In this document: one piece after another, positions 2,351-19,291 of the stretch
How positions within the stretch are numbered: position 1 is the first letter of the stretch
How the letters are laid out: every line of letters starts with the position of its first letter
Assembly (NCBI GenBank): GCA_012719445.1
Contig: JAAYAH010000185.1
Span: 1-24,009, forward strand
Direction of reading: 5' to 3'
Source of the DNA: Actinomycetales bacterium
Lineage (GTDB): Bacteria; Actinomycetota; Actinomycetes; Actinomycetales; Kineosporiaceae
DNA length: 24,009 nt
Program-made: the position numbers and the translations under genes
The notes under the pieces: generated by a model
What the model was told of the DNA's origin: nothing
The model's input: only the letters and a program-made list of their open reading frames with translations
Database searches by the model: none

Positions 2351-2396
2351 GGGGCTCCGAACGAAGCCCCAGCTCCGAACGAAGCCCTCGGAGAGC
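2351..2396. terminator. Two adjacent GC-rich hairpins (tandem 16-bp repeat CTCCGAACGAAGCCC) between the convergent expansin-like and PII genes
   Basis: GGGGCTccgaacgaAGCCCC (2351-2370) and GCTCCGAacgaagcccTCGGAGAGC (2372-2396) lie between the stop codons at 2298 (+) and 2400 (-). Confidence 0.4.
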
Positions 2397-2399
2397 CCG

Positions 2400-2774
<375 letters not shown>

Positions 2775-4126: not shown

Positions 4127-4244
4127 TCGGCGACGTGAACTGTACCAAAGCCCGGGACCGTCGCTGTCGCGTCACCCCGCCTGCCGCGGCCTCCGGCCGT
4201 CGAGCCTGTCCCCATCCCCGCGCCTCCCACCGGTTCCCGCCTCT

Positions 4245-4316
4245 CACGATCAGGTGATCCCACGATCCGATGGTCAGGATCCGGTGGCCACGATCCAGTG
4301 ATCACGATCCGGTGAT
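4245..4316. repeat. Tandem array of five imperfect ~14-bp repeats (CAyGATCCrGTGry), each with a GATC core, spanning the dnaG stop codon and its 3' flank
   Basis: CACGATCAGGTGATCC / CACGATCCGATGGT / CAGGATCCGGTGGC / CACGATCCAGTGAT / CACGATCCGGTGATGCG read directly from the sequence. The dnaG stop is at 4302-4304. Confidence 0.6.
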
Positions 4317-6404
4317 GCGTTCGCGCAGCTGCCGCCGCTGTCCCTCGGCCTCGGTGATCTCCCGAAGGGTCTCCAGCAGGGCGGGGTCGTCGGGAGCCGT
4401 GCGCTGCATCCGGCTGCGCAGGTTCCCGATGTGCCGGTTGAGCTCGCCCTCCACGACCCGCAGCACGACGGACACGGCGTACCGGGACAGCGCCTCGTCG
4501 TCGTCCGCCGGGAGCGGCGCCACGGCCAGTTCGGTGACCAGCCCGGACACGGTGTCCGGGGCGTTCTCCCGGACGGCGTCGGCCCAGACGTGGGCCGGCA
4601 TCGTCACCGCGGTGGTGAGCCCGCCCGCGGCCCGGATCGCGTGGTGCACCGACCGGTGGGCCGGGACGGCGAAGGCCTGCTCCGAGAGCAGGTCCACGTC
4701 CTCCACCGGCACCAACTCCGGCACCTGGAGCATGCACTCCAGGGCCTCACGCTCCACCCGCGCGACCGGGTCGCGGAGGTCGATCCGGTCCCCCGGCCCT
4801 CCCGAGCCGGACGGGTAACCCTCGACATCTCCCCCCGGACCACCCGCCGCGTCCGGGCCGCCGTTCCGGCCTCTGCCACGGGTCCCCTGGGACGTGGCCT
4901 CCCCGGCCCCCGACGCCGTGGCCGGTCCCCGGGACGATCCTCTTCCCTGGGGCGAGCCCGTCCCGGGGGCGCCGCCACCCCTGGTCTCCGGCCCTCCCGG
5001 CCGGGTACCCGCGCCCGGGAGATCCCCGCCGGGCCTGCCCGCGCTCTCGGCCCCCCCGCTCCCCGCGGCCCGCACCTGGTGCGAGACGGCGCGCAGCACC
5101 GGCTCGACCTCCATCCCGAGCCAGCCGGCGAGCTGCCGGGCGTACTCGGGTCGCAGCGACGCGTCCCTGATCCTGGCGACCATCGGTGCCGCGGCCCGCA
5201 GCCCGCGGACCCGTCCCTCCGGGGAGTCCAGGTCGATCTCCTTCAGGGTGGTCCGGATGGCGAACTCGAACATCCGTTGGCGGCTCTCCACCAGTTCCCT
5301 GACCGCCTCGTTCCCCCGCCGCTGCCGCAGCTCGCAGGGATCCATGCCGTCCCTCGCCACCGCGACGAAGGTCTGCGCGACGAAGCGCTGGTCGTCGGCG
5401 AAGGCTCGCATCGCGGCCTTCTGCCCGGCCGCGTCGCCGTCGAAGGTGAAGATCACCTCCCCATTCCTCGCGCTGTGGTCGCCGAGCAGCCGGCGCACGA
5501 CCCGGATGTGGTCCTCGCCGAACGCCGTCCCGCAGGTCGCCACCGCCGTCTCCACCCCGGCCAGGTGACAGGCCATCACGTCGGTGTACCCCTCGACGAC
5601 GACGACCTGACGCCTCCTGGCGATCTCCCGTTTGGCGAGGTCGACCCCGTAGAGCACCTGGGACTTGCGGTAGAGGGTGGTCTCCGGGGTGTTGAGGTAC
5701 TTCGCCTCGATCCGGTCGTCCTCGAAGATCCGGCGTGCGCCGAACCCCACGACGTCCCCGGTGACGTCCCGGATCGGCCACAGCAGCCGGCCCCGGAACC
5801 GGTCGTACAGCCCCCGTCTGCCCTGTCCTGCCGCCCCCGAGGCGAGCAGCTCGTCCTCGGTGAACCCCCGGCCGCGGAGGTGCCGGAGCAGGGCCTCACC
5901 GGCCCGGGGCGCATAGCCGATGCCGAAGTGCTCGGCGACCTCCCGGTCGAACCCGCGCTCGGTGAGGAACCGGCGGGCGACGTCGGCGTCCCCCGGCGTC
6001 CCGAGCTGCTCCGCGTAGTACGCGGCAGCGACCCGGTTGAGGTCGATCAACCGTTGCCGCTGGCCGACCCGCTCCCTGCGACCGGTCGCGGCTCCCCCGC
6101 CGTCGTCCTCGTACCGGACCTGGTAACCCAGCCGGCTCGCGAGGTGCTCGACGGCCTCCGCGAACCCGAGGTGGTCGATCTTCTGCACGAAGGAGATGGC
6201 GTCGCCGCCCTCACCGCAGCCGAAGCAGTGCCACAGGCCGACGTGCGGCCGGACGTGGATGGACGGCGTCCGCTCGTCGTGGAAGGGACACAGGCCCTTG
6301 AGCGACCCGACCCCCGCGGTCTTGAGCGCCACGTGCTCCCCGACGACCTCGTCGATGCGGGACTGCTCACGGACGTGCTCGACGTCCTCGCGCCGGATCC
6401 TCAT
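4302..6404 (-). CDS. dnaG: DNA primase DnaG (start taken at MRIRREDVEHV; upstream in-frame extension to 6623 unlikely)
   Basis: N-terminal zinc-binding domain (CPFHDERTPSIHVRP...WHCFGCGEGGDAISFV), TOPRIM region (VVVVEGYTDVMA...FDGDAAGQKAA) and a C-terminal helicase-interaction region. A ~110-aa Gly/Pro/Arg-rich low-complexity linker lies near the C-terminus. CAT at 6402-6404 verified. Confidence 0.9.
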   Translation of the reverse strand: MRIRREDVEHVREQSRIDEVVGEHVALKTAGVGSLKGLCPFHDERTPSIHVRPHVGLWHCFGCGEGGDAISFVQKIDHLGFAEAVEHLASRLGYQVRYEDDGGGAATGRRERVGQRQRLIDLNRVAAAYYAEQLGTPGDADVARRFLTERGFDREVAEHFGIGYAPRAGEALLRHLRGRGFTEDELLASGAAGQGRRGLYDRFRGRLLWPIRDVTGDVVGFGARRIFEDDRIEAKYLNTPETTLYRKSQVLYGVDLAKREIARRRQVVVVEGYTDVMACHLAGVETAVATCGTAFGEDHIRVVRRLLGDHSARNGEVIFTFDGDAAGQKAAMRAFADDQRFVAQTFVAVARDGMDPCELRQRRGNEAVRELVESRQRMFEFAIRTTLKEIDLDSPEGRVRGLRAAAPMVARIRDASLRPEYARQLAGWLGMEVEPVLRAVSHQVRAAGSGGAESAGRPGGDLPGAGTRPGGPETRGGGAPGTGSPQGRGSSRGPATASGAGEATSQGTRGRGRNGGPDAAGGPGGDVEGYPSGSGGPGDRIDLRDPVARVEREALECMLQVPELVPVEDVDLLSEQAFAVPAHRSVHHAIRAAGGLTTAVTMPAHVWADAVRENAPDTVSGLVTELAVAPLPADDDEALSRYAVSVVLRVVEGELNRHIGNLRSRMQRTAPDDPALLETLREITEAEGQRRQLRERITGS

Positions 6405-6717
6405 CGCCGCCCCTGCCGGTCCGCGGGCGCTCCCGGCCGACCGGACGCCGTCCGCGGCACCCCGGGCTTCGCGCCCGGCCCCGCTGTCACGTCCACAGGC
6501 GGAGTCTAGGTGCCCGTGGGGTACCGCCGGCTCCGACACCGTCGTCGTCCACAGGCAGGGATCACCCGGCTCCGCGCAGTGACGAGGATCACGCAACGGC
6601 CGTCGGGAGCACCACCGTCCCACCGGCGCGACGACTGATCATCAGGGCGTTGCGGCCCTGTCCGTCGTCGCACGCCGTCCCGGACGTCGGAACGGCCCCT
6701 TCGGCAGAGGAGTTCGC

Positions 6718-8721
6718 GTGGTATCGCGCGATTTGATCATCATTCTGGCCGTCGTACTCGTACTCGTCGTGGTCCTGTTGAAGTCCCTGCACGTCATCGC
6801 AGCCACCGAGGTCGGCCTGGTCACCAAGCGGTTCGGCAGGCGGCTCGGCTCGGACCAGCCGATCGCCTTCCGGGGCGAGGCCGGATACCAGGCGAAGCTG
6901 CTCATGCCGGGGCTGCGTTTCAAGCTCTGGCCGGTCTTCTCGGTCTCCAAGCACCCCTGGGTGCAGATCCCGGCGGGCGAGATCGGGGTGGTCATCGCCC
7001 AGATCGGCGCACCGCTGCCGATCGGCGCGAAGACCGCCGAGTACCGGCCCGAGTTCGCCAACTTCACGGACCTGACGGTCTTCCTGGCCGAGGGCGGCCA
7101 GAAGGGCATCCAGCGGCCGGTGTTGCCCCCCGGGACCCTGCTCCCGCTGCACCCGGTCGCCTTCCTCGTCCTCACCGCCGGGCGGGTCTACGGCCTGCCG
7201 GTCTCCAGCAACGTCGACCGCCGCAAGCCGCTGACCCCGCAGACCTTCGGGCTCACCCCCGAGCACCTCAGGGTGACCGTGGTCGCCCCGCAGGGCTGGC
7301 AGGACGTCGTCGGCATCGTCACCACCCTTGAGGGACCGGCTCCCGAGGCAGGGGACATCGCCAGCAGGCTCGGCGGGTACGCGGACATCGCGGCTCTTGA
7401 GGAGAGCGGTGCGGGTGACGCCGAGAAGATCGAGGCGATCCTGGCGTCCAAGAACGGGCTGCACAACAACTACCAGGACTACCAGGCCTTCCTCGACCAC
7501 GGCGGACGGATCGGCCTCCAGCACGACCCGCTGCTGTACGGGTCCTACCTGCTCAACCCGTTCCTGGTGCGGGTGGAGTTCGTGCCGATGCTCGTGGTCC
7601 GGCAGGGTGAGGTCGCCGTCGTGAAGTCCTACGTCGGCCTGCCCACCGTGGACACCTCGGGGCAGGAGTTCAAGTTCGGCTCCATCGTCCGCCCGGGGCA
7701 CCGGGGGATCTGGAACGAGCCGCTGCGCACCGGCAAGTACTCGATCAACCCGCGCCTGTACGCCGCGGAGATCGTCCCCACCTCGATCCTCACCCTCAAC
7801 TGGGCCAACCAGAGCTCGCAGGCGCACAACCTCGACGCGATGCTCAGCCCGATCGACGGCAAGTCCCGCGAGGGCTTCGTCTTCGGGATCGACCTCCAGG
7901 TCCAGATCCACGTGCCCGACTCCAGGGCACCGAAGGTGATCTCGATGGTGGGCACCATGCAGAACCTCGTCAACGAGGTGCTGCAGTCGGCCGTGGGCAA
8001 CTACTTCCGCAACGTGCTGCAGCAGCTCCCGGCCGTCCAGTTCATCGAGACGCGGGACGCCGTGCAGAACCACGCGCAGGAGTACATCACCGGGTACCTC
8101 GGCAAGTACGAGGTCGAGACCAAGGGCGTGTACATCCAGGACGTCGTGTTCCTGCCGGAGCTGGTCACCGTGCTCACCCAGCGCGAGATCGCCAACCAGG
8201 AGCGCTCGACGTTCGAGGAGCAGCAACGGGCCCAGATCGTCCGGGTCGACCTGGAGAAGGCGCGCGGCACCGCCGACATGCAGGCCGAGCTGGCCAAGGC
8301 CAACGTCAATGTCGACATCCAGAAGGCCGCTGCCGCCGCGAGAACGGCCGAGGCCGAGGGCGTCTCGGCGTTCACCCGGATGACGGGCCAGGCCGAGGCC
8401 GACAAGACGCAGGCGATCGGCCTGGCCCAGGCGAAGGCCGTCGAGGCGCTCGGGGTGGCCAAGGCCAAGGGGTACGAGGCCCAGGTCACGGCCCTCGGCC
8501 AGCAGGCCACCGCCGCGGTCGCGGTGGCGGGCGCGGTGGCCGACGGCCAGATCAAGATCGTTCCCGAGGTCATGGTCTCCGGGAGCGACGGCAACGGCGC
8601 CTTCACCGGACTCGCCGCAGCTCTCACCGGATCCCTCAGGGACTGGACACCGGGACGGACCGACGCCGAGGAGCGTCCCGCGGCGAACGGACGCACCGGA
8701 GCCGACGGATCCGCCGCTTGA
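6718..8721 (+). CDS. Flotillin-like SPFH/band-7 membrane protein (YqiK/FloT family), 667 aa
   Basis: GTG start after GAGGAG. N-terminal TM helix (LIIILAVVLVLVVVLL), SPFH domain, then a long Ala/Glu/Gln-rich coiled-coil tail (QERSTFEEQQRAQIVRVDLEKARGTADMQAELAKANVNVDIQKAAAAARTAEAEG...) typical of flotillins. Confidence 0.8.
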   Translation: MVSRDLIIILAVVLVLVVVLLKSLHVIAATEVGLVTKRFGRRLGSDQPIAFRGEAGYQAKLLMPGLRFKLWPVFSVSKHPWVQIPAGEIGVVIAQIGAPLPIGAKTAEYRPEFANFTDLTVFLAEGGQKGIQRPVLPPGTLLPLHPVAFLVLTAGRVYGLPVSSNVDRRKPLTPQTFGLTPEHLRVTVVAPQGWQDVVGIVTTLEGPAPEAGDIASRLGGYADIAALEESGAGDAEKIEAILASKNGLHNNYQDYQAFLDHGGRIGLQHDPLLYGSYLLNPFLVRVEFVPMLVVRQGEVAVVKSYVGLPTVDTSGQEFKFGSIVRPGHRGIWNEPLRTGKYSINPRLYAAEIVPTSILTLNWANQSSQAHNLDAMLSPIDGKSREGFVFGIDLQVQIHVPDSRAPKVISMVGTMQNLVNEVLQSAVGNYFRNVLQQLPAVQFIETRDAVQNHAQEYITGYLGKYEVETKGVYIQDVVFLPELVTVLTQREIANQERSTFEEQQRAQIVRVDLEKARGTADMQAELAKANVNVDIQKAAAAARTAEAEGVSAFTRMTGQAEADKTQAIGLAQAKAVEALGVAKAKGYEAQVTALGQQATAAVAVAGAVADGQIKIVPEVMVSGSDGNGAFTGLAAALTGSLRDWTPGRTDAEERPAANGRTGADGSAA

Positions 8722-8756
8722 CACGAAACGTCATGGGGTGCCTGACCACTCCTGAC

Positions 8757-8796
8757 GGCGGCGGCCGGCGCCCGGTGAGGGACGCCGGCCGCCGCC
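8757..8796. terminator. Perfect 14-bp GC-rich inverted repeat (GGCGGCGGCCGGCG-12nt-CGCCGGCCGCCGCC) between the convergent flotillin and dgt genes
   Basis: Read directly from the sequence. It lies between the stops at 8721 (+) and 8810 (-). No U-tract (I-shaped terminator style common in high-GC actinobacteria). Confidence 0.5.
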
Positions 8797-8809
8797 GTGA
8801 CGGTGGTCC

Positions 8810-10144
8810 TCAGCCTCCGGTGAGGGCCCGGTGCCAGGACCACGCCCTGCTGTCGGTGAGCGACGCGACCTGGTCGATGACGGCCCTGCGCCGCCCGGGC
8901 TCCCCCGCGGCCCGGGTCCAGGCCTCCGCGAACGGCGGTTCGAGCACGTCCGGAGCACCGGCGGTCAGCTCGCGCACCAGGTCGGCGACGACCTCCCGCT
9001 GCCGGGTGTACAGCGGCTGCCGGTCCTCGACGGTCATCACGTAGACGGCGGCAACGCCCTTGAGGGAGTTGATCTCGACCAGCGTGCCCCGCGGTACCAC
9101 GACGTCCCCCGCGTACCGGGTGAGCCGGTCGGGTCCGAACCGGTCCCGGGTGGCCCGTTCCACGGCGAGGGTGAACCGGCCGACGAGCTGGCTGGTCAGG
9201 TTCTTCAGGGCGGCCAGTGCCCGCAGCGAGGCGTCGTAGGTCGCCACCCAGGCGGGCATGGCCCGCAACCTCGCCAACGCCTCGACGACCTCCCCCTCCT
9301 CGACGTCCGGCAGGTACCAGTCCCGGACCTGGACGGCGACCCGGCGCAGCGCGTCGCCGTCCGCCAGCTCCCGCGGGTCGAGATGGCCGCTGACGACGGC
9401 GTCCTCGACGTCGTGGACGCTGTAGGCGATGTCGTCGGCCAGGTCCATCACCTGGGCCTCGATGCACCGCCTGCCGACCGGCGAGCCGGCGCGGAGCCAG
9501 GCGAACACCTCGGCGTCGTCGGCGTAGACCCCGAACTTCGACCGGGACACCCCTGCGGGCCCCTCCCCCTTGCCCCAGGGGTACTTGGTGACCGCGTCGA
9601 GCCCGGCCCGGGTGAGGTTGAGGCCGACGCCGCGACCGGACCGGGGGTCGATGACCTTGGGTTCGAGCCGGGTGAGCAGTCGCAGGGTCTGCGCGTTGCC
9701 CTCGTAGCCGCCGATGTCGGCGGCAAGGGCGTCCAGGGCCGACTCGCCGTTGTGCCCGAAGGGCGGGTGCCCGAGGTCGTGGGCGAGGCAGGCGGCGTCC
9801 ACGACGTCCGGGTCGCAGCCGAGGGCGAGCCCCAGCTCCCGGCCCACCTGGGCCACCTCGAGGCTGTGGGTCAGCCGGTTCCGGACGAAGTCGTCGGTCT
9901 CCGGCCCCACGACCTGGGTCTTCGCGGCCAGCCGGCGCAGGGCGGAGGAGTGCAGCACCCTCGCCCGGTCCCGGGCGAACTCCTCCCGGTGGGAGTCCTT
10001 GGGCGGCTCGTGCACCCACCGCTCGCGGTCGGCGTCGGCGTAGCCGGTCTCCGGTTCGCGCGTCATGCCCCGCCCGGCCGGGTCCCGGCCGGTGCTCGTC
10101 GAGCCCGTCTCTCCGATGGTCGCCATCCCTGAGGTCCTCGGCAC
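8810..10144 (-). CDS. dgt: dGTPase-like deoxynucleoside triphosphate triphosphohydrolase (HD domain); start uncertain (10144, 10126 or 10066)
   Basis: EFARDRARVLHSSALRRLAAKTQV...LTHSLEVAQVGRELG...CLAHDLGHPPFGHNGE match the dgt/HD-hydrolase family. dus-dgt co-orientation and proximity to dnaG fit the actinobacterial dgt-dnaG neighbourhood. Confidence 0.85.
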   Translation of the reverse strand: MPRTSGMATIGETGSTSTGRDPAGRGMTREPETGYADADRERWVHEPPKDSHREEFARDRARVLHSSALRRLAAKTQVVGPETDDFVRNRLTHSLEVAQVGRELGLALGCDPDVVDAACLAHDLGHPPFGHNGESALDALAADIGGYEGNAQTLRLLTRLEPKVIDPRSGRGVGLNLTRAGLDAVTKYPWGKGEGPAGVSRSKFGVYADDAEVFAWLRAGSPVGRRCIEAQVMDLADDIAYSVHDVEDAVVSGHLDPRELADGDALRRVAVQVRDWYLPDVEEGEVVEALARLRAMPAWVATYDASLRALAALKNLTSQLVGRFTLAVERATRDRFGPDRLTRYAGDVVVPRGTLVEINSLKGVAAVYVMTVEDRQPLYTRQREVVADLVRELTAGAPDVLEPPFAEAWTRAAGEPGRRRAVIDQVASLTDSRAWSWHRALTGG

Positions 10145-10159
10145 ATCTGCCGCCCTCGT

Positions 10160-11443
10160 TCACCCCCCCGATGCGGGCAGTTCAGCGTAGGCGAGATCGA
10201 CCGCCTGCGACCCCTCGATCTCCCGGCTGTCCAGCCACCCGTCGGGAAGAGTGACCCGCCGGGACGCACCGCCCCGCCCACGCTGCCCCTCCGCCGGCGA
10301 GCCGGGGTACGGCTGCGCGACGTCGAGACCCGCGACGACCTCGTCGAACTCGGCGAGCGAGGAGACCAACGCCAGCCGGGCCCTGACCTCGTGCCCCACC
10401 ACGTACCCCTTGAGGTACCAGGCCACGTGCTTGCGGATGTCACGGCAGGCCCGCTGCTCCGCGAGCGCCGGCCCGGCGGCCTCCCCGGCACCGACATCCG
10501 TCGCGTAGTACCCGACGAGCAGGACGACGTGTCGTCGCATGGTCGCCAGCACCTCACCGAGGGACGGTCGCACCCGCTCCGGGCGCCCGGCCATGCCCGC
10601 CACGAGGTCGGCGAACAGCCACGGCCGGCCGAGACAGCCACGGCCGACCACCACCCCGTCGCACCCGGTCTCGGCCACCATGCGGACCGCGTCGTCCGCC
10701 GACCAGACGTCCCCGTTGCCGAGCACCGGGACGGTGGTCACGACCTCCTTGAGCCGGGCGACGGCCGACCAGTCCGCGGTGCCCGAGTAGTAGTCGGCGG
10801 CGGTCCGGGCGTGCAGGGCGACGGCAGCGGCGCCCTCGGCCTCCGCGATCCTCCCGGCGTCGAGGTAGGTGAGGTGGTCGGCGTCGATGCCCTTGCGCAT
10901 CTTCACGGTCACCGGGACGCCGTGCGGTTCGGCCGCCCGGACCGCACTGCCGACGACCCGCGCGAACAGTCCCGACTTCCAGGGCAGCGCGGAGCCCCCT
11001 CCCTTGCGGGTGACCTTGGGCACCGGGCAGCCGAAGTTGAGGTCGACGTGGTCGGCCCGGCCCTCGGCGAGCAGCATCCGGACGGCGGAGCCGACGATGT
11101 CGGGGTCCACGCCGTACAGCTGGACGCTGCGCGGATGCTCGTCGGGATCGTGGGTGATCAGGCGCAGGGACTCCTCGTTGCGTTCCAGGAGCGCGCGCGA
11201 GGTGACCATCTCGCTGACGAACACCCCGGCGTCCGCCGCGAGGCCCGGCCTGCGACCCCTGCCGGGGTCCTGCCCGGCGTCCGCCCCGGTGCACTGACCG
11301 GCCCCGGGTGCGGCAGGGTGACCGCCGAGAGCCCACTCCCGGCACAGCCGCCGGAACGCCCGGTTGGTGATCCCCGCCATCGGCGCGAGCACCACAGGGG
11401 TCGCGACGTCGATGGGTCCGATCCGCAACGGCACGACATCCAT
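10160..11443 (-). CDS. dus: tRNA-dihydrouridine synthase (Dus family)
   Basis: VLAPMAGITNRAFRRLCRE...VDLNFGCPVPKVTRKGGGSALP...VTVKMRKGID...ALHARTAADYYSGTADW...VLGNGDV match Dus. Start taken at MDVVPLRIG (CAT at 11441-11443 verified). The ORF extends upstream to 11665, probably not translated. A ~35-aa Gly/Ala/Pro-rich insertion follows the PMAG motif. Confidence 0.85.
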   Translation of the reverse strand: MDVVPLRIGPIDVATPVVLAPMAGITNRAFRRLCREWALGGHPAAPGAGQCTGADAGQDPGRGRRPGLAADAGVFVSEMVTSRALLERNEESLRLITHDPDEHPRSVQLYGVDPDIVGSAVRMLLAEGRADHVDLNFGCPVPKVTRKGGGSALPWKSGLFARVVGSAVRAAEPHGVPVTVKMRKGIDADHLTYLDAGRIAEAEGAAAVALHARTAADYYSGTADWSAVARLKEVVTTVPVLGNGDVWSADDAVRMVAETGCDGVVVGRGCLGRPWLFADLVAGMAGRPERVRPSLGEVLATMRRHVVLLVGYYATDVGAGEAAGPALAEQRACRDIRKHVAWYLKGYVVGHEVRARLALVSSLAEFDEVVAGLDVAQPYPGSPAEGQRGRGGASRRVTLPDGWLDSREIEGSQAVDLAYAELPASGG

Positions 11444-11495
11444 TCTGGCAATCGCCTCTGACACCGCGACGCCCGGCAGTTGATGCCAGGAACTC

Positions 11496-11630
11496 GCCCC
11501 CCCCGGAACCACTCCCGCTGTCACGGATCGTGATCTCGGCGATCGCGTGACCGCGCAGGCCACCGGGAGACCACTCCCGCTGTCACGGATCCAGCGACCG
11601 ACCCCGTATCGGAGTCCCTTTTCGATACCC
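11496..11630. promoter_or_regulatory. Regulatory-looking intergenic block with a C8 homopolymer, two perfect 21-bp direct repeats and a short palindrome
   Basis: C8 homopolymer at 11497-11504. Two perfect 21-bp direct repeats CCACTCCCGCTGTCACGGATC at 11509-11529 and 11571-11591 (62-bp period). Small palindrome GTATCG-11nt-CGATAC at 11606-11628. The block lies between divergent dus (start 11443, -) and operon gene 1 (start 11687, +). Confidence 0.5.
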
Positions 11631-11686
11631 TGCGTGTCGCCGGTCGTGGCAGCACGGGGATGCACCGAGGACGACCAGGGGGACGC

Positions 11687-11974
11687 GTGGCAGATCTGAA
11701 CATCGACACGGCAGTACTACGGGAGGCCGGCGCGCAACTGCGGATTGTCGCCACCGAGTTCGTCCACGCCAACGTGCGCAGCGACGACGTGGCCGAAGCC
11801 GTCGGGCACGATCGACTCGCCGAGCGGATCCGCGACTTCGCCCACAACTGGGACGACAAGCGGGAGCAGATGGTCGAGGGTGTCGGGCAGCTCGCCGAGA
11901 TCGCCAGCGGGGTCGGTGAGGTCTTCGAACAGGTGGAGACCGAGTTCGTCAAGGCCCTGGAGGGCGGGTCGTGA
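11687..11974 (+). CDS. Small (~95 aa) all-helical protein with a central W-x-D turn; WXG100/Lap-like candidate; first gene of the six-gene operon
   Basis: GTG at 11687 with GGGGGA RBS 4-10 nt upstream (alternative ATG at 11660). VADLNIDTAVLREAGAQLRIVATEF...FAHNWDDKREQMVEGVGQLAEIASGVGEVFEQVETEF. The stop TGA overlaps the gene 2 GTG (GTGA at 11971-11974). Confidence 0.55.
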   Translation: MADLNIDTAVLREAGAQLRIVATEFVHANVRSDDVAEAVGHDRLAERIRDFAHNWDDKREQMVEGVGQLAEIASGVGEVFEQVETEFVKALEGGS

Positions 11975-13473
11975 GCCGCCCGATCGACTGGACACCGCTG
12001 GGCCGCTCCCGCGACCCCGTCCCCGGCGATCCGTTGGTCGTCGAGACGACGGGCAGGCACTACCAGGAGGTGGCCCAGACCATCACCACGGCAGCCGAGC
12101 GGCTGCGAAGGATCGCCGATCACGAGCAGATGACCAGCAAGGCCGTCGAAGCCTTCCGGGAGAAGGCCGAGCAGGTCGCCACCGACATCCAGAAGGCCCA
12201 CCAGCGATATCAGGCCGTCGGCGATGCTCTGGTCACCTACGCCGCCCACCTCTCCGATGCCCAGGACACCTCCGTCGAGGCGTTGACCAAGGCTCGGGTC
12301 GCCGAGACCGACAAGCAGCTCGCCGACCGCAAGGCCGAGACCGCCCGCACCGCCGCCGAGACCGCGACCGACCCCGACACCCGCGCCGTCCAGGAGGCCG
12401 CTGCCCGACAGGCCGAGGACGACGTCGCAGCCGCCGAGCGGGAACTCGCCCGGGCCACCGGCCTGCTCGCCACCGCGATCGAGCTCCGCGACCGCGCCGC
12501 GACCGCCGCCATCGCCCTCATCGACCCCGCCCTGAGCAGCGGCGGACTGACCGACAACTGGTGGGACGACTGGGGTCGGGTCACCGTCCAGTGGATCTCC
12601 AAGATCTCCGGGGCAGTGGCCGCCGTCTGCGGCATCCTCTCCCTGGTCGTCGGCTGGATCCCTGTCATCGGCCAGGCCCTAGCCGCGATCCTCGGCACCA
12701 TCGCCCTCATCGCCTCGATCATCTCCCTGCTGGCAAACCTCACCCTGGCGCTGACGGGCGACGGCAGCTGGTCGGCCGTCGTCCTCGACGTCATCAGCGT
12801 CGCCACCTTCGGCCTGGGCCGGGTAGCCAGCGCGTCCGCGCGGCTGAGCTTCCAAGGAGCCAAGGGCTCGGCACGGCTCGCGGCGGGACGTCTCGCAGCA
12901 CAATCCCCTGGAGTGCGTTCTGCACTCGGTCTCCCGGCCAACGCCTCGGCCAGGGAGGTTATCCGCAGGTTACTGAAATCAGACGATCTTGCAGCACTCA
13001 GCCGGAGATCAGCACGACGAATGGCCAAGAACGCGAACCGTCATGGCCGGATCTTCTCCGCATCCAGCACCTCACGCTCGCTCAGCTCCATCGGGACGGA
13101 CTTCACCGACTCATTGCGCACGGTATCCCAGAGAACCAGTTGGAACAACATCGTCAGCAAGACCCGAACCGAGTTCAGCGAAATCGTCGATCTGGCGCGG
13201 TCTCAACAATTCATGCCCGCTCTCGACCGCGCACTGGGGGAAGCAGGAATCGCCACTGATTTCCAAACGCTCAGCAGAATGGAGACGTCGCTACTCGGAC
13301 AGACGGAGGTGAGCACCTCGATCAGCAGGGCCGTTTCCAGTAACCGCACGTTTTTCTTGTCCACAGCTATCAGCGCTGGAGTTGACTCCTACCAGTTGGT
13401 AGCCACAGGGTCCGGTTCCCAAGAGAACGGTCCCGCGCAGCTACACGTCCCGGTGCCAACAGGATCGCGATGA
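11971..13473 (+). CDS. 500-aa membrane protein: N-terminal ~215-aa helical domain, 2-3 TM helices, C-terminal ~175-aa domain encoded in lower-GC DNA; candidate polymorphic-toxin-like protein
   Basis: N-terminus MSRPIDWTPLGRSRDPVPGDPLVVETTG... is followed by long A/E/R/T-rich helices. TM block ISGAVAAVCGILSLVVGWIPVIGQALAAILGTIALIASIISLLANLTLAL. GC drops from ~70% to ~50-55% from ~12950 (about aa 325) to the stop. The stop overlaps the next start (ATGA). Confidence 0.65.
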   Translation: MSRPIDWTPLGRSRDPVPGDPLVVETTGRHYQEVAQTITTAAERLRRIADHEQMTSKAVEAFREKAEQVATDIQKAHQRYQAVGDALVTYAAHLSDAQDTSVEALTKARVAETDKQLADRKAETARTAAETATDPDTRAVQEAAARQAEDDVAAAERELARATGLLATAIELRDRAATAAIALIDPALSSGGLTDNWWDDWGRVTVQWISKISGAVAAVCGILSLVVGWIPVIGQALAAILGTIALIASIISLLANLTLALTGDGSWSAVVLDVISVATFGLGRVASASARLSFQGAKGSARLAAGRLAAQSPGVRSALGLPANASAREVIRRLLKSDDLAALSRRSARRMAKNANRHGRIFSASSTSRSLSSIGTDFTDSLRTVSQRTSWNNIVSKTRTEFSEIVDLARSQQFMPALDRALGEAGIATDFQTLSRMETSLLGQTEVSTSISRAVSSNRTFFLSTAISAGVDSYQLVATGSGSQENGPAQLHVPVPTGSR

Positions 13474-14075
13474 CTTTCAACGACACCTGTCCACACAAGC
13501 AAGCACTCGTCGGATACCGCCTGAGTGCACCAGCGAGTTGGGCGGCACTCCCCCTGGAAGGCGAATCCGGGTGGGTGGACGAGGTTATAGCACTGCTGGC
13601 TCCCCGTCCCGAGACAAGGGCGACACTGCGGCAAGATCTCCAACTGGTTCATCGCGCACTGAACTCTGAGCAACACCTCGGAATCGGCGCGTGGATGCCG
13701 TTCCCCGAGACCGGGTCAGTGTTAGGTGCCATGGCCGTCGACTTGATGATTCCGAACGAGGGATCCGGAAAAGCCGTGGACATCGACGAGTACCGCGAGT
13801 TACTCGCCACCGTCAAACGGCAGGGAGTAAGGGTCATCTCACGGGAAATCTTCCGGGACACCGTGAACGCTGGTCCTTGCCTCACCGCCAGAGAGACAGT
13901 CATGATGGATCGGAGAGTCGTCGAGTACCATGTGGTCTACTCCGTTTTCCCACTGGACTCCTGCGATGCCATTGAACTCACATTCTGCACCCCCCATCTC
14001 GAACTCGCAGCAGCCCTCGACACCGACAGCCGACTGATAGCTGACTCGCTCACCTTGTCAACAGGTGAACGATGA
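13470..14075 (+). CDS. Hypothetical soluble protein, 201 aa (paralog A of a tandem pair), low-GC
   Basis: ATGA-coupled to both neighbours. Shares with the next gene an N-terminal L-x-L/S-P-A-x-W-x-x-x-P-L motif and a C-terminal (L/E)L(T/C)F(C/S)TP...L(E/D)...(L/I)...S(L/V) motif. Confidence 0.6.
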   Translation: MTFNDTCPHKQALVGYRLSAPASWAALPLEGESGWVDEVIALLAPRPETRATLRQDLQLVHRALNSEQHLGIGAWMPFPETGSVLGAMAVDLMIPNEGSGKAVDIDEYRELLATVKRQGVRVISREIFRDTVNAGPCLTARETVMMDRRVVEYHVVYSVFPLDSCDAIELTFCTPHLELAAALDTDSRLIADSLTLSTGER

Positions 14076-14743
14076 TCAATACCTTCCGCGTATCCGGCCA
14101 TCAGCTGGACCTCGTTCTTCCGGCTACCTGGGTAACCATCCCCCTGCAACCGCAGAGCGTGCGGGCCCGAGATGTGCGGATTCTCGTCCAACGCCAGTTC
14201 CGGGGGGTCGACAACCAACCGCTGCTCCGAACCGAGACGGAACACCAACTCCTTGTGTCCGCTGACCGCGCAGCTGATGCAGGAGCCGACTTCCTCGCCC
14301 TGTCCCTCATGCAGGTCGCCGGTGTGCCCATCCCGGCCTCCATGGTTGCTCACTCGATTCCACTGGAGTCGGGTGACCCTAGAGAGAGCACCGGGTGTCT
14401 CGCTGTCCTCGATCGCATCATAGAAAGTCTCGGTGATGTCGAGAGCCAGCATCCCGCAGCCCGACTCGCCCGCGGCAGGGTGGCAGCGGGGGATGTGCTT
14501 CGTAGAGTCGCCCACCGCCCTGGTCATGGCATCGAGGGCTCAGATCCGCCCACGGTGATCGTCGCGGACTACTGGCTCCCTTGGCCAGACGACCATGGCA
14601 CCGCGCTCCTGTGCTTCTCTACCCCGCTGACCACACACCAGGAACCCATGCTCGAACTCTTCGACGCCATCGTGGAGAGCGTTCACTGGACCTCACCCGG
14701 TGATTCGGAGGACATTGATCCAGAGGAGATCCGTGACCGCTGA
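14072..14743 (+). CDS. Hypothetical soluble protein, 223 aa (paralog B of the tandem pair), intermediate GC
   Basis: ATGA-coupled upstream. Shares motifs with the 201-aa protein (LDLVLPATWVTIPL ; ALLCFSTPLTTHQEPMLELFDAIVESV). Confidence 0.6.
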   Translation: MINTFRVSGHQLDLVLPATWVTIPLQPQSVRARDVRILVQRQFRGVDNQPLLRTETEHQLLVSADRAADAGADFLALSLMQVAGVPIPASMVAHSIPLESGDPRESTGCLAVLDRIIESLGDVESQHPAARLARGRVAAGDVLRRVAHRPGHGIEGSDPPTVIVADYWLPWPDDHGTALLCFSTPLTTHQEPMLELFDAIVESVHWTSPGDSEDIDPEEIRDR

Positions 14744-15974
14744 TTCCGACCAGATACACCGAGACGACAGCCCGAACGGGTCGGCTGAGCTGGCCCCGAT
14801 GTCCCCCACCAGGCCGTCGGTTGCTGACTGCGCGCGCCTCGTTGCCGCTCCGGGAACCATCATCATCGACCTACCGGGGCGTGATCGGCGCGAGTTCCGA
14901 GTACCCGAGGACGCGTCAGCCGCTGGAGTCATCAAGGGCCATTCCAGCTCATATTTCGTGTTAACAACGTCCTTGGGCAGGCCCGTCGCAGCATTCCCCA
15001 TGACAGAATGGGTCCCACCCGGCGAACTCATAAACTTCGATCTTCTCACCTCACGCAATACAAACGGGCGAGCACGAGCTCACCTACCTTGGCCGCTCGA
15101 CGAGTTCATCTCGACCGGAGGTCTGGATTCGTCACCGGTTGTTATTTCGGATACCCCTCCCGAGTGCGAGATACACCGGGTCATCCCACCCAGCCGTGCC
15201 GGCGCCATCTCGTTTGTTCTATCCTTCTTCGGCCCGATCCTTCTTCTCGTTTCGATTCTCATCACAGAATTCCTCGCATCACTGCTGGAAAACAGGGGGA
15301 TCACCAACGCAGTCAGCCCAATCGCTTTCACCCTTATCACCTCGTCTGTCATCGCCCAAGCCGGTGCATTGGGTGCCGTCTGGCACATCACGTATTCACA
15401 TACATCACCTCCCCGAGGAATGCAACCCAGGACACTCCAACCAATTCCCGATCACCCGCTCCCCCGACTGTTCACCCGATCAGCAAGCATTCAGATCGAC
15501 GACATGGGGACATTGGTGAGTGATGTCGACCGAATGGCGATCCGATTCCCGACGCGAGGTATCGTCGCGATCACGAATTGGGTCGTTCACACCGACAAGG
15601 GATCACCAGTATCACTGGATCTCTGCGCTGGAGACCGCTGCCTTGTCCGACTGCCCTGGTCCGATTGGTTCCCCGATACGTCTATGGATCACATCACGAA
15701 AGCACTGCGCCTGCAACCAGAGCTGCGACCTGCGGAAAAACAGGGGACTGTCATCTCACCTCAAGTCGTCAATGACAGGAAACCCACCGTCGGCCCGGAT
15801 CTCAGGTTGACGGTGCTCATGCTTCTGACCTGCTCACTGGCTTTCATGTCGGCTGTCGGTTACTCGCCCGGACTCGCAACCGTGACACGCATCTCGAGTG
15901 GAGGTGCCATAGCCCTGATCCTCTCGTTCCATGCCCTCGCAACAGTCCTCATCAAGTGGGGCGAGCGTTCTTGA
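14700..15974 (+). CDS. Four-TM membrane protein P1 (~415-424 aa), low-GC copy of a tandem paralog pair; start may be GTG 14700 or the in-frame GTG at ~14734
   Basis: N-terminal soluble domain (EWVPPGELINFDLLTS...HLPWPLDEFIS), TM pair (AISFVLSFFGPILLLVSILITEFLASLL ; VSPIAFTLITSSVIAQAGALGAVW), a middle domain (RLPWSDWFPDTSMDHITKALRLQPE) and a C-terminal TM pair. It overlaps the upstream stop, and its stop overlaps the next start. Confidence 0.65.
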   Translation: MIRRTLIQRRSVTADSDQIHRDDSPNGSAELAPMSPTRPSVADCARLVAAPGTIIIDLPGRDRREFRVPEDASAAGVIKGHSSSYFVLTTSLGRPVAAFPMTEWVPPGELINFDLLTSRNTNGRARAHLPWPLDEFISTGGLDSSPVVISDTPPECEIHRVIPPSRAGAISFVLSFFGPILLLVSILITEFLASLLENRGITNAVSPIAFTLITSSVIAQAGALGAVWHITYSHTSPPRGMQPRTLQPIPDHPLPRLFTRSASIQIDDMGTLVSDVDRMAIRFPTRGIVAITNWVVHTDKGSPVSLDLCAGDRCLVRLPWSDWFPDTSMDHITKALRLQPELRPAEKQGTVISPQVVNDRKPTVGPDLRLTVLMLLTCSLAFMSAVGYSPGLATVTRISSGGAIALILSFHALATVLIKWGERS

Positions 15975-17269
15975 CTCCCCGGAGACCCGAGACGCCTGTC
16001 TCCGACCTCTCGGACCTGCCAGCTACGCAGAGCCGTACCGCTGCCGCGCCCGCCCGGGTCGAGTTGGTTCCCTTCGCACCCGCCGATCCCGAGGTGGCCC
16101 GTTCCACCTTCCTCGTCGCGACTCCCGAGGAGATCACCCTCGTCACCTCGTGGCGGCAGCCGCGCACCTGGCAGGTCGGCCGGGACGTCAGCAGCTACAC
16201 GATCCACACCGACCTCCGGCACAACATGCCGCCCTACCTGCTCGTCCTCCTCGACGACGCCGGAGCCCCCGTCGCCTCGCTCCCGCTCCGGGACTGGGTT
16301 CCCGAGGGGGAACTGCTCGCGCACGACCTCTTCATCCAGCCGGAGACGCGGCGTCGGACCGGCTCCCGGATGCCGTGGCCCCTGGACTCGTTGGTGGCCG
16401 CCGCCGGGCTCTCCCCGTACCGCGGGGATCACCTGGACGACAACGCCGTGGACCGCGCCCGGGAGCAGTGGGCTCCCCCGACTCCCGCCAGCACGTGGGT
16501 GCTCGTGCTCGGCATGCTCGCACCGGGCATCTGGCTCCTGACCGCGATCCTCATCGGGGCCGTGGCTGTCGTCCTCGACGCGCGAGGTCTCGTCGATGTC
16601 GCCGGAGTGCTGGCGTTGGCGTTCCTCGGGCTGGCCTGTGCCGTCCCCCTGCACCAGCTGAACCGGCTTCGCCGGCTCGCTCGCCCCCGGCCTGCCGAGG
16701 GAGTGCCGGACGGCGCCCGGGTACTGCGACCCGTTCCGGGGCGGGCTGTGTCCCGCCAGTTCTCCGCGACGTCCTGGCTGGCCGTGACCGGGGACGGGGT
16801 GGTCCTGCACGCGCCGGACGGCCGGGAGCTCGTGTTCCCGTCGGCCGGTCCCACCGCCGTCACCCGGTGGACGGTCGCGCGGGATGGGGACCGGCCCACC
16901 TTCCTCGACCTGTATGCAGGGAGGCACCACCTGACTCGTCTGGCCTGGGACGACTGGTTCCCCGACGGCTCGACCGAGCACCTGCGACAGGCGCTCGGCA
17001 TCATCCCCCAGCCGAGCGACACCACCGCCGACCCCGCGACGCTGCCGTGGCGGCTCGACGACTCCTGCTCCGCTGGTGACACCGGGCTCGTTCTCGCCCT
17101 GCCGTCGCTGATCACCTGTCTCGTCGTGGCCCTGTCCGTCAGGCTCTACTCGACGCCCCTCGCCTGGACGGTGGGGATCAGCTGCGCGCTCACGGTCCTC
17201 GTGGTGACGGGCACACACTGGCTCGGCTGGCGGGTCCAGCGGGATCGGGAGCCGACACCACAGTGGTGA
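15956..17269 (+). CDS. Four-TM membrane protein P2 (~432-437 aa), high-GC paralog of P1; start GTG 15956 or TTG 15971 (TTGA overlap with the P1 stop)
   Basis: Clear homology to P1 across all blocks (DWVPEGELLAHDLFIQ...MPWPLDSLVA ; RLAWDDWFPDGSTEHLRQALGIIPQ) with the same 2+2 TM topology, but ~70% GC versus ~52% for P1. Confidence 0.65.
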   Translation: MGRAFLTPRRPETPVSDLSDLPATQSRTAAAPARVELVPFAPADPEVARSTFLVATPEEITLVTSWRQPRTWQVGRDVSSYTIHTDLRHNMPPYLLVLLDDAGAPVASLPLRDWVPEGELLAHDLFIQPETRRRTGSRMPWPLDSLVAAAGLSPYRGDHLDDNAVDRAREQWAPPTPASTWVLVLGMLAPGIWLLTAILIGAVAVVLDARGLVDVAGVLALAFLGLACAVPLHQLNRLRRLARPRPAEGVPDGARVLRPVPGRAVSRQFSATSWLAVTGDGVVLHAPDGRELVFPSAGPTAVTRWTVARDGDRPTFLDLYAGRHHLTRLAWDDWFPDGSTEHLRQALGIIPQPSDTTADPATLPWRLDDSCSAGDTGLVLALPSLITCLVVALSVRLYSTPLAWTVGISCALTVLVVTGTHWLGWRVQRDREPTPQW

Positions 17270-17388: not shown

Positions 17389-19029
17389 CTAGACCGCCGT
17401 GCTGTCCGACGCCAGCACCGACCCGTACCTCGTGCCTGTGATGTTCCCCGTGGACAGGGTGACCTCGGTGGGGTCGACGATCTCGAACCCCGCGAAGACC
17501 CGGATGTACACCAGCCCGGCGTCCGCGACTCCGCCGACGTCCTGGCCGGGGACGGCGACCTGTGGGTCCCACGCCCCGGTCCCGACCAGGCGCGCCGACA
17601 GAGTCGCACCGAGCCGGTCACCGGCCTCCGGGGTCCCTGACAGGCCGTCTCCCTGGGTGAACCGGACCGCCTCTGGATCGCAGCCCTTCCGGTTCGTGTA
17701 GCGCCCGAGGCAGTCGAGGCGGAGGTGGTACACCGCTCCGGCGTCGGTGACCGGCCCGACGTCCTCACCAGGAGCGCCGACGACCAGACCGGCGGTCTGC
17801 CGCTCGTAGCTGTCGAGTTCCCCGTTGAATGCTGTCGCGGCCCCGAACGCGTCACCGCGCTCGGCGGTCCCTGGGATGCCACCGGTGCCCTCTGCCAGGG
17901 TGGCCCGGTAGCTGAAGGCGCTCTCCTCCAGCGGGTCGAACCCGAACAGCTCGACCGTGCCGGCCTCACGGGCGCCACCGACGTCCTCGCCCGGCACGCC
18001 GACGGCCAGCAGCTCGGAGTCGGCCGCGACAGAGGCCCCGAACCGGTCACCCCGCTCGGCGCGCCCCGGGGTCTTCGCGCTGTCCTGGGAGACGCGCTGC
18101 GCGGCGGACACGGAGCCCTCCTCCGAGTCGACGAACAGAACCGCGACCGAGCCGGCGTCGTCCGCGGTACCGACGTCATCGTGCGGAACGCCGACGACCA
18201 GCACCGTCGGCGCCTGTTCGTCGTCGACCATCTCCGGGTCGTACTCGTCGGCCGCCCCGAGGATCTCGCCGAACCGGTCGCCCGCCTCGGCCCGGTCCCC
18301 CCGGCCCTCGCCCGCCGGCACCGGGTCGTCCAGGGTGATGGTTCCCAGATGGGTGACGTCGACCGGCCTGCCGTGGCGCCCGGGGGCGTCCAGCCGGAAG
18401 TGCTCGACGGCCCCCGCGTCCACCAGCCCTCCGACGTCCCGCCCCGGGGCACCGATCCACAGGTCGAGGACTCCCTCCAGCCGTTCCCTCGGTCGGGTGC
18501 GCCTGGTCACCGCGACAGCCGCGCCGAACTCGTCACCGGGTGCGCCGGTCGGTGCGCTGACCGGAACGGTCGCGGTCCCGAAGCCCTCGGCGGAGTTGCG
18601 GGTGAGGAACACCCGGCCGGCCCCGTCCGCGCCCGGGGCGCCGATCACCAACGACGGGCAGTCGCTGCCGTCGAGGTCCGTGATGAGCACGGCGGCTCCG
18701 AGCCGATCGGTCACCGCGCCCGCGCCAGCGCCGATCGAGGACCGGGTCAGCAGTCGGGTGCCGGTCTCCTCGAGCCGCACGTCGACCGCGCCCCGTCCCT
18801 CCCCGTGCCCGGGGAGGCCGACGGCGACGTCGTCCGCGCCGGCGGCACAGGCCTCCACGGCGGTCCCTGCGGTGGCCGCTGTCGTGGACCCGGTGCTCGC
18901 CGCACCGCCGGTGCCCCCGCCACCGGAACAACCCGCGATCCCACCCGCGACCAGCCCCGTCACCAGCACGGCCGCGAGCGCGACCGAGGGTCTCGTCACC
19001 GGGGTCCCGCACCGGATCATCGCTCGCAT
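17389..19029 (-). CDS. Secreted lipoprotein with FG-GAP / integrin-alpha-like beta-propeller repeats (start probably MRAMIR at 19029; ORF open to 19122)
   Basis: Signal peptide plus lipobox (LVAGGIAGCSGG). At least five repeats of the form G(A/V)PGxDVGGxxDAGAVxxF (e.g. VAVPGQDVGGVADAGLVYI, GAPGEDVGPVTDAGAVYHL, VGVPGEDVGGAREAGTVELF). Confidence 0.75.
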   Translation of the reverse strand: MRAMIRCGTPVTRPSVALAAVLVTGLVAGGIAGCSGGGGTGGAASTGSTTAATAGTAVEACAAGADDVAVGLPGHGEGRGAVDVRLEETGTRLLTRSSIGAGAGAVTDRLGAAVLITDLDGSDCPSLVIGAPGADGAGRVFLTRNSAEGFGTATVPVSAPTGAPGDEFGAAVAVTRRTRPRERLEGVLDLWIGAPGRDVGGLVDAGAVEHFRLDAPGRHGRPVDVTHLGTITLDDPVPAGEGRGDRAEAGDRFGEILGAADEYDPEMVDDEQAPTVLVVGVPHDDVGTADDAGSVAVLFVDSEEGSVSAAQRVSQDSAKTPGRAERGDRFGASVAADSELLAVGVPGEDVGGAREAGTVELFGFDPLEESAFSYRATLAEGTGGIPGTAERGDAFGAATAFNGELDSYERQTAGLVVGAPGEDVGPVTDAGAVYHLRLDCLGRYTNRKGCDPEAVRFTQGDGLSGTPEAGDRLGATLSARLVGTGAWDPQVAVPGQDVGGVADAGLVYIRVFAGFEIVDPTEVTLSTGNITGTRYGSVLASDSTAV

Positions 19030-19291
19030 CGCCTCGTCCTCACCTCGGGAACCCACCCGGTGCAGGACCAGCGCGGGACTGGGCACCCCTGGGAACCGCG
19101 CACGGGCAGGACACGCTGTCACCGGGATGATCGCGATTCGGGTGGCACCGTTACGTGAGGTCGGTCACGCGAGGTGGCGCTGGGGACCGGTCAACGGGAC
19201 GGCGTCCTGCGAGTGGCCGGGTGCACCCCGGCCGCTCACGGTCTCAGGCGGGTCAGCGGTCGCGGGGCGGGTCAGCGGTCGCGGACCGGGA

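Follow-up and report, generated by a model that had tools for sequence, protein, structure and literature searches.

A strain-variable low-GC cassette, probably exchanged by recombination, in an uncultured actinobacterium's putative effector operon for type VII secretion

Results and Discussion

A low-GC block within a six-gene operon

The stretch of DNA analysed here (the window) spans all 24,009 nt of contig JAAYAH010000185.1 from a metagenome-assembled genome (MAG), which is deposited at NCBI as "Actinomycetales bacterium" and belongs to an uncultured organism (proteins NLT55846–NLT55859). It covers a housekeeping region with tRNA-Met, tRNA-Asn, P-II, dnaG, an SPFH protein, dgt, dus, an FG-GAP protein, glyS and leuA, and has an overall GC content of 69.6%, the native-like genes having 72%. 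Between dus and the FG-GAP protein gene, with glyS lying beyond, we found an operon of six genes on the plus strand, called G1-G2-S1-S2-P1-P2 in the following, whose stop and start codons overlap (Table 1). Inside this operon lies a block of low GC content, and we consider it probable that this block is a recombinationally exchanged, strain-variable cassette at a putative effector operon of a type VII secretion system (T7SS).

In 300-nt windows the GC content falls from 0.67–0.76 to 0.56–0.65 between approximately 12900 and 15900. A two-breakpoint likelihood scan of the in-frame third codon positions (GC3) over the plus-strand genes, with support intervals of 2 lnL units, placed the 5' break at nt 12855 (support 12822–12888), corresponding to codon ~295 of G2, and the 3' break at nt 16045 (support 15988–16138) inside of P2. 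GC3 is 0.66 within these breaks and 0.89 outside of them, and the gain in log-likelihood is 75. The resulting block of ~3.2 kb (12855–16045) includes the C-terminus of G2, S1, S2, P1 and ~30 codons of P2. At the level of single codons, GC3 equals 1 for 63 of 64 codons over 12751–12852 and is mixed starting at 12853, while on the right side it is intermediate (0.75) over the first ~60 codons of P2 and equals 1 at all codons from 16136 to 16195, the end of the stretch inspected. An initial annotation, made from the DNA sequence alone, had already described a low-GC block, and the scan, the codon usage described below and the 300-nt windows all show that it is real, although its details had to be corrected. 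The 5' break does lie within G2, but at codon ~295 instead of ~325, and the 3' end is indeed near the P1/P2 border but not exactly on it, as the transition extends over 16044–16280. The block is also slightly richer in GC than the proposed 50–58%, with a mean of 0.60 and 0.585–0.63 for the individual genes.

Pooled over codons, GC1/GC2/GC3 are 62.7/50.8/66.0% in the block and 72.5/52.0/91.4% in nine native-like genes of the window, and the synonymous codon usage of the two sets deviates significantly (χ² = 613, df = 41). The χ² per codon is 0.8–1.5 for the block genes. Of the nine native-like controls eight range over 0.04–0.19, and the one exception, the small G1, reaches 0.81. Divided into parts, GC3 amounts to 0.82 in G1, 0.92 in the N-terminal part of G2, 0.66 in its C-terminal domain (GC 0.60), 0.66 in S1, 0.64 in P1 and 0.89 in P2 from 16046 on. 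We also compared the block with the values expected for a genome of ~60% GC according to empirical equilibrium regressions, for which the codon-position coefficients are those of Muto-Osawa and Lawrence-Ochman. GC1 (62.7 vs 63.7) and GC3 (66.0 vs 68.9) of the block are close to this expectation, and GC2 is higher (50.8 vs 42.9), as it likewise is in the native-like genes (52.0 vs 46.1). Since GC3 of the block is not raised toward that of the host, there is no sign of amelioration and the arrival of the block looks recent.

The closest relatives of the G2 N-terminus are found in Pseudonocardiaceae MAGs and in Nocardioides aestuarii (47–52% identity, order G1-G2-S1-S2), and in these GC3 is uniform and host-like along the whole G1-G2-S1-S2 module. 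The low-GC pattern is thus not a common property of all relatives but specific to this lineage, as no GC break is seen when the module occurs in other genera. The composition break is sharp, highly significant and confined to this lineage.

Different cassettes in conspecific strains

Using exact-sequence look-ups we reached two contigs from conspecific strains, L088 (ENA ERZ2648042, 19.9 kb) and L089 (Logan ERR14064717). L088 shows 98.7% identity to the window over 1024–11456. Its identity per 100-nt window is 93–100% (mostly 98–100%) until ~11400 and then only 29–57% across 11400–11700. The following G1 and G2 N-terminal region is ~85% identical in nucleotides, and at the protein level G1 shows 84% and residues 1–130 of G2 show 76% identity, both with a GC3 of ~0.9. 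The N-terminal part of G2, which had been regarded as native, is therefore host-like in GC3 but nevertheless strain-variable, with 76–84% amino acid identity in L088 against 98.7% for the flanks overall. The L088 contig stops 130 codons into G2 (15166–15557 of that contig), and its assembly may have broken through strain heterogeneity at a variable locus in the sample.

L089 covers the other side. From 16281 on, along P2 and the intergenic stretch behind it and up to 17400 at least, its nucleotides are 100% identical to those of the window, and so are the residues of the FG-GAP protein. In successive 50-nt windows across 16044–16280 the identity is 0.72, 0.70, 0.62, 0.90, 0.90 and then 1.00, and upstream of 16044 L089 cannot be aligned to the window. 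The right border of strain divergence hence coincides with the GC3 change-point at 16045. Upstream of it L089 carries a different cassette in the order end of S1' – P1' – 46-codon open reading frame (ORF) – S2' – P2, which is also low in GC (0.54–0.66; GC3 0.61–0.74). S1' is 47% identical to S1, P1' 34% to P1 and 27% to P2, S2' 39% to S2, and P2 92% to its counterpart at the amino acid level. The 46-codon ORF between P1' and S2' is what remains of the 3' end of a further S1-type gene (z = 10 against S1' and 5.4 against S1), as none of 300 shuffles attained the observed alignment score.

Conspecific strains therefore hold unrelated, likewise low-GC cassette alleles at the same place, and the L089 allele retains a truncated S1-type gene as the scar of an earlier displacement. 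Because L088 and L089 both diverge from the window at the operon despite near-identical flanks, the locus is hypervariable within the species, with P2 as the conserved right-hand anchor. This agrees with the initial annotation, which had suggested an exchanged cassette with P2 as the downstream anchor and a syntenic comparison for alternative cassettes, and which is now largely borne out by the different gene content and gene order of L089, its S1-type remnant and its identity to P2 from 16281 on. The accompanying idea that P1 is simply an incoming extra copy of P2 has to be given up, as the cassettes of both strains hold a P1-type gene.

Table 1: Coordinates of the operon, its parts and borders, and neighbouring genes in the window.
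Feature	Position (nt)	Strand	Remarks
G1, ~95-aa partner protein	11687–11974	+	longest ORF from 11660
G2, 500 aa	11971–13473	+	
G2 N-terminal part, aa 1–295	11971–12855	+	T7SS_signal domain and transmembrane block, host-like composition
5' composition breakpoint within G2, codon ~295	12822–12888	+	just after the invariant FGxGR motif
G2 C-terminal domain, aa 296–500	12856–13473	+	first gene segment of the low-GC cassette
S1, 201-aa cytoplasmic protein	13470–14075	+	ATGA overlap with G2
S2, 223 aa	14072–14743	+	PsbP/Mog1/DUF1795-type fold
P1, polytopic membrane protein, low GC	14700–15974	+	start at 14733 in another assembly
P2, polytopic membrane protein, host-like composition	15956–17269	+	NCBI start 16094
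3' transition zone within P2, codons ~30–108	16044–16280	+	inferred crossover region
dus/G1 intergenic (promoter) region	11440–11686	.	left border of strain-to-strain divergence
dnaG	4302–6623	-	
dus	10160–11665	-	
FG-GAP protein gene	17389–19122	-	

As the window is a MAG contig and the 5' break lies beside the most conserved segment of G2, we considered an assembly chimera, in which reads of two organisms would have been joined at conserved sequence. It would also fit that no second assembly showed the P1/P2 junction when P1 and P2 were looked up as exact sequences, with four variants of the start, a caveat that applies to the exchanged cassette as well. However, the 5' junction was found again in an independent assembly (L081, ENA ERZ778039) with 4 single-nucleotide polymorphisms over 1582 nt, and S1-S2-P1 were found in a JGI contig (L082). 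A chimera would moreover need two joins, each preserving intact overlapping ORFs, and L089, which derives from another sample, has a low-GC cassette against the same high-GC P2. We therefore regard an assembly artefact as extremely improbable.

A single foreign insertion by illegitimate recombination, with neither anchors nor ongoing exchange, would be in line with the fact that the borders of the block show no direct or inverted repeats of note and that no integrase or transposase was found in the operon or next to the block (Pfam scan); the only tRNAs of the window and an integrase fragment are ~10 kb distant from the block. It would also account for a complete P1 being followed by a complete P2, with no P1/P2 chimera. 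But such an event does not explain a second, different cassette at the same place, whose border falls into the very 240 nt of P2 where that of the window lies, nor a G2 reading frame that stays intact across the junction with conserved motifs on each side, and the displaced S1-type remnant in L089 shows that events have been repeated. This explanation is very unlikely in our opinion. In-situ decay or pseudogenisation was ruled out as well, as all ORFs are intact with ATGA overlaps.

More weight has to be given to an ancient balanced polymorphism, in which old alleles would be kept by frequency-dependent selection and the low GC would reflect a local regime with little recombination or GC-biased conversion and AT-biased mutation. 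Two unrelated alleles are both low in GC and even share the ranking of their genes, with S2 highest and S1 and P1 lowest, so that a local compositional regime, not a foreign origin, could lie behind both. The divergence also peaks in the cassette and decays on either side, from the 62–90% at the 5' end of P2 and the ~85% of the G1–G2 N-terminal region to the 98.7% of the left and the 100% of the right flank. Furthermore, we found no donor or near-identical source for any block gene. The metagenome scan with P1 returned the same strain only, the block DNA had no match among plasmids and phages, and a comparison of the block proteins with plasmids gave just an Rhs-type relative and nothing for P1. 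The donor lineages that the initial annotation had hoped to reach have thus not been found. On the other hand, GC1 and GC3 of the block match a genome of ~60% GC, and the rise of GC3 toward host values that a long residence would predict is absent. S2 of the window and S2' of L089 are each nearer to homologues from Pseudonocardiaceae MAGs (43–45%), that is from other bacterial families, than to one another (39%), and the G1–G2 N-terminal alleles have diverged by 15% of nucleotides yet keep a GC3 of ~0.9. We therefore judge an old polymorphism to be unlikely, although less so than the two preceding alternatives, and prefer the exchange of cassettes.

G1 and G2 as a putative type VII substrate

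G1 is conserved upstream of the G2 homologues in most loci, and its family alignment shows an invariant central W (FAHNWDDxR). It has no Pfam match, and an hhalign comparison with a WXG100 protein was co-linear but weak (probability 20%). By its size and position G1 is putatively Tap/Lap/WXG100-like. Residues 17–188 of G2 match the T7SS_signal domain (PF21725 in Pfam) with 36.8 bits, where the gathering score is 27, and G2 homologues carry the same precomputed domain. An AlphaFold2 model of G2 shows helices at 21–49, 57–131 and 135–189 with a predicted local distance difference test score of 83–98, mostly above 90 over 21–189. From these features we infer that G1 and G2 form a type VII secretion substrate.

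The signal domain is followed by a transmembrane (TM) block at residues ~195–290 with a hydrophobic core at 208–264, and at the end of this block the family alignment shows the invariant residues G281, G283 and R284 of the FGxGR motif. The TM-coding segment (12620–12770) is the part of G2 with the highest nucleotide conservation relative to distant homologues of ~50% protein identity, with 77–83% identity over 90 nt and exact runs of 15–20 nt, and the composition break lies 100–200 nt downstream of it. A left crossover within G2 is plausible, because the break follows the FGxGR motif and adjoins this most conserved tract. Within the TM block, residues 224–250 (12640–12720, WIPVIGQALAAxLGTIALxAS) show a small-xxx-small (G/A) periodicity, which is reminiscent of the glycine-zipper motifs known in membrane-active T7SS toxins such as TelE.

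The C-terminal ~200 residues of G2 are predicted to be all-helical and are fast-evolving. Homologues of this part are rare: only 11 weak matches were obtained among 1.8 billion representatives, mostly at the equivalent C-terminal position of proteins that are similar in length or truncated, with P0079, P0081 and P0082 differing in position or length. The initial annotation had suspected a different type of toxin here, but the C-terminus is homologous to that of the full-length relatives and belongs to the same helical domain family. Its divergence of 0.27 is as expected from that of the N-terminal part (0.28 ± 0.06), a comparison that includes distant relatives only and is insensitive to a swap.

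S1 and S2 as chaperone candidates

S1 and the S2 family can be aligned over their full length with 20% identity, so that the two small proteins, which had been described as paralogues, are only distant ones. S2 has a PsbP/Mog1/DUF1795-type fold. In Pfam S2 has no hit and S1 only spurious sub-threshold hits (E up to 1), the DUF1795 model being unmatched, and a protein search with S2 returned 13 matches of at most 43% identity. Homologues of S1 follow G2 in seven loci (L001–L005, L083 and L084). Throughout the family set of 102 members, with one genome per species, each gene encoding a T7SS_signal domain plus TM block has an S-family ORF at most 3.5 kb away (102/102). The S genes are usually paired. 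Among the genes so accompanied are those for the Rhs-type toxins, where a separate DUF7683 gene occupies the usual immunity position. Because this linkage follows the TM-bearing N-terminal module whatever the payload is, we favour a role as chaperone or adaptor over one in immunity, as which the small genes had been interpreted before. S1 and S2 are thus more probably chaperones than immunity proteins, and by analogy to Eag we regard S2 as a candidate for chaperoning the TM block of G2. It has to be said against this assignment that the PsbP fold is also used by real immunity proteins such as Tsi3 and TplEi. An identity of S1/S2 as EspG-like chaperones was ruled out by their PsbP/Mog1 fold.

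P1 and P2 as candidate protectors

P1 and P2 are indeed paralogues, as had been proposed (28% identity, E = 2e-43). TM segments of P1 were found at 165–198, 368–389 and 398–421. The P family is fast-evolving and has no database annotation: no hits above noise were obtained in Pfam, NCBIfam or PADLOC for either protein, DUF443 and DUF600 were unmatched, and a search of 5.8 billion proteins gave no homologue of P1, whose nearest relative is P1' of L089 (33–34%). By analogy to known systems we regard P1 and P2 as candidate immunity (protector) proteins. Paired P genes are not unique to the window, since Streptomyces chisholmiae also has two of them after G2 (L048, 11512–12882 and 13527–14924). 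NCBI annotates P2 from a GTG at 16094 (391 aa), but P1, P2 and P2 of L089 share an N-terminal motif upstream of it (RR..T..SD ... ELxPFxP), and the true start is probably at 15956–15971, which would make the NCBI protein truncated.

Relatives in other species

Relatives of the G2 N-terminus are encoded at 80 loci from other species. In L003 and L084 the module of T7SS_signal domain and TM block, with the same TM block being kept, is fused to an Rhs cage that bears a Cytotoxic domain. L084 (JGI Ga0136634_10000126, 1–1927 and 2699–7569) encodes a 1447-aa T7SS_signal-DUF6531-RHS-Cytotoxic toxin followed by a DUF7683 gene and S-family genes; the toxin adjoins an EccC-like ATPase (FHA and FtsK domains) and a WXG100 gene, and a G1-G2-S-S module lies directly beside it, so that this is a multi-effector T7SS island. 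In L084/L085 a homologous module is thus genetically linked with genes for a WXG100 protein and an EccC-like ATPase. The window itself contains no T7SS core genes.

A different picture is given by Streptomyces, where L006, L013, L016 and ~40 other loci (around 9100–11400) show the order S2-G1-G2 with a G2 of 463 aa, and where at least two of the modules of L006, L013 and L016 are near a NarK-like transporter. This leads to the possibility that the operon does not encode a toxin and its immunity at all but a membrane protein exported by the T7SS, whose role would be physiological or lie in self-recognition (kin discrimination, cell-cell contact), P1 and P2 being receptors or partners. Toxicity of G2 is indeed unsupported. 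Its C-terminus has no recognisable toxin domain, belongs to no Pfam or NCBIfam family and has no match to sequences or folds in the PDB, the fold search with G2 giving just generic BAR-like or coiled-coil matches (E > 0.06). Across the 102 members the N- and C-terminal parts of G2 co-diverge (r = 0.88), and among the pairs whose N-termini are at least 60% identical only one lacks matching C-termini. P-family genes adjoin G2/S2 in only 21 other loci, about a quarter of those fetched. The loci L006, L013 and L016, which were examined closely, have no P gene, and this arrangement looks like a conserved housekeeping-like substrate, not a polymorphic cassette. Nevertheless, the same T7SS_signal and TM module carries Rhs/Cytotoxic payloads elsewhere, and the extreme allelic divergence within the species together with displaced remnants is typical of conflict loci. 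The toxin loci of actinobacterial T7SS also share the layout of this operon, and for 47% of the payloads encoded there no function is predicted (PMC13444075). A role outside of conflict is therefore somewhat unlikely in our view, but of the alternatives discussed here it has to be taken most seriously.

Comparison with known systems

The general scheme of polymorphic toxins has been described by Zhang et al. (2012, PMC3482391), and recombination is known to reshape T7SS immunity arrays (Garrett et al. 2022, PMC9484751). Like CdiA-CT/CdiI and Rhs-CT/RhsI (PMC3482391), the operon combines a constant N-terminal trafficking part with a break at a conserved motif (FGxGR), a composition shift inside an ORF, a variable 3' end that is exchanged together with the downstream genes, and a displaced remnant, which is found in L089. 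In contrast to these systems the C-termini of G2 form one homologous domain family instead of unrelated toxin domains, no orphan C-terminal fragment was seen in the window, and the toxin activity is putative.

With TspA/TsaI and EsaD/EsaG of the Staphylococcus aureus T7SSb (PMC9484751) the operon shares a helical substrate followed by tandem, non-identical protector genes, which in the case of TspA encode polytopic membrane proteins, strain-polymorphic loci and recombination via conserved blocks. G2, however, gave no LXG hit (PF04740) at E up to 1, P1 and P2 match neither DUF443 nor DUF600 and resemble TsaI by topology and position only, there are just two P copies, and the cassette includes chaperone-like S genes and has a foreign base composition.

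Tap/Eat toxin loci of the T7SSa type have been found across Actinomycetota, with protectors of envelope-acting toxins that carry TM helices and with nearly half of the payloads lacking a predicted function (Benedict et al. 2026, PMC13444075). The likeness consists of a small accessory gene directly upstream, varying and often unannotated payloads, downstream protector genes that often have TM helices, and a wide distribution. Different from Eat, G2 has a ~90-aa TM block between signal domain and C-terminus, which itself has no enzymatic fold, there is one upstream partner gene instead of two, one or two PsbP-fold S genes are always present, and the system described here is known from sequence and models.

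The TM block and the S genes find their closest parallel in the prePAAR/TMD effectors of type VI secretion systems (T6SS) and their Eag chaperones (EagT6/Tse6, SciW/Rhs1). In both cases N-terminal TM helices precede a variable payload, including Rhs cages in the relatives, the linkage tracks the TM module and not the payload, and the small partner (here S2) has a PsbP/Mog1-like fold. The differences are the T7SS_signal domain and Gram-positive host in place of a T6SS, and that S1 and S2 are unmatched by the Pfam model DUF1795, larger (200–220 aa) and usually paired, with a putative binding to the TM block. As a tentative proposal, in which our confidence is limited, the family might represent a widespread new class of T7SS effectors that combine a T7SS_signal and TM delivery module with pairs of PsbP/DUF1795-fold chaperones. 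Equally tentative is the idea that this class might be the T7SS counterpart of the T6SS prePAAR-TMD/Eag system, with payloads ranging from a small helical domain to Rhs cages and, in this species, with payload, chaperones and a membrane protector being traded between strains in a single low-GC cassette.

A model for the exchange of cassettes

In the model that we favour, whole cassettes would be swapped by recombination between conserved anchors. One crossover would lie within the highly conserved TM-coding segment of G2 or shortly behind it, or else as far left as the promoter, and the other one toward the 5' end of P2. A gene pool of lower GC would have supplied the DNA, which would have arrived recently. 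G1 and G2 would act as a type VII substrate like the Tap and Eat or Lap and LXG pairs, the TM block would be the delivery or membrane-insertion module, and S1 and S2 would shield it within the producing cell, in the way in which T6SS effectors are shielded by Eag chaperones. The variable C-terminus of G2 and P1 might be a matched effector/protector pair, with P2 as a conserved second protector, and a large number of cassette alleles would be kept circulating by diversifying selection that results from conflict or recognition between strains.

Some observations do not fit easily into this model. No strain was recovered that has the window's G1 and N-terminal part of G2 together with a different 3' part, and therefore the left crossover inside G2 is placed by composition alone. 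The divergence between the window and L088 begins further left, at the promoter, which means that exchanges can reach to this region. The ~30% amino acid identity between P1 and P2 corresponds to ~41–46% G2 N-terminal identity in other module pairs, and with such divergence of the donor classical homologous recombination would be inefficient or rare.

Neighbouring features of the window

The dus/G1 intergenic region, which cannot be aligned between the strains, contains a direct repeat of 25–40 nt (11505–11544 and 11567–11606, core GAGACCACTCCCGCTGTCACGGATC, 62-nt spacing), which may serve the operon as an operator or as part of its promoter. The tRNA-Met gene (1030–1106, minus strand) is a second strain-variable site. 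On the window side it has an integrase-like fragment (214–879, minus strand, Phage_int_SAM_3), and upstream of the same tRNA-Met L088 carries an intact 435-aa integrase with helix-turn-helix and phage-like genes (1–4311) that cannot be aligned to the window, so that the two sequences look like different integrated elements at one tRNA. A gene for an expansin-like protein (DPBB_1 and Expansin_C, 1114–2298) lies beside this tRNA-Met and is present in L088 too. Besides the tRNAs no Rfam families were detected in the window, and PADLOC found nothing at the locus but coiled-coil noise.

Conclusion

In summary, the exchange of cassettes at effector loci is a known phenomenon, familiar from Gram-negative contact-dependent inhibition (CDI), Rhs and T6SS loci and from the T7SSb of firmicutes, whereas antibacterial toxins of the actinobacterial T7SSa were demonstrated only in 2026. 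The locus described here adds a natural example from an uncultured actinobacterium, with three assemblies of one species that have shared flanks and unrelated cassettes, a mapped right junction and a remnant. New are the module family and its possible Eag-like parallel in T7SS. Except for the T7SS_signal domain the G1, G2, S and P families are unannotated in public records, and the gene roles need revision, with S1 and S2 being chaperone-like and P1 and P2 candidate protectors. The universal linkage of PsbP/DUF1795-fold proteins to TM-containing T7SS substrates offers a testable parallel. If it is true, the solution that T6SS use for exporting hydrophobic effectors would also exist in T7SS.

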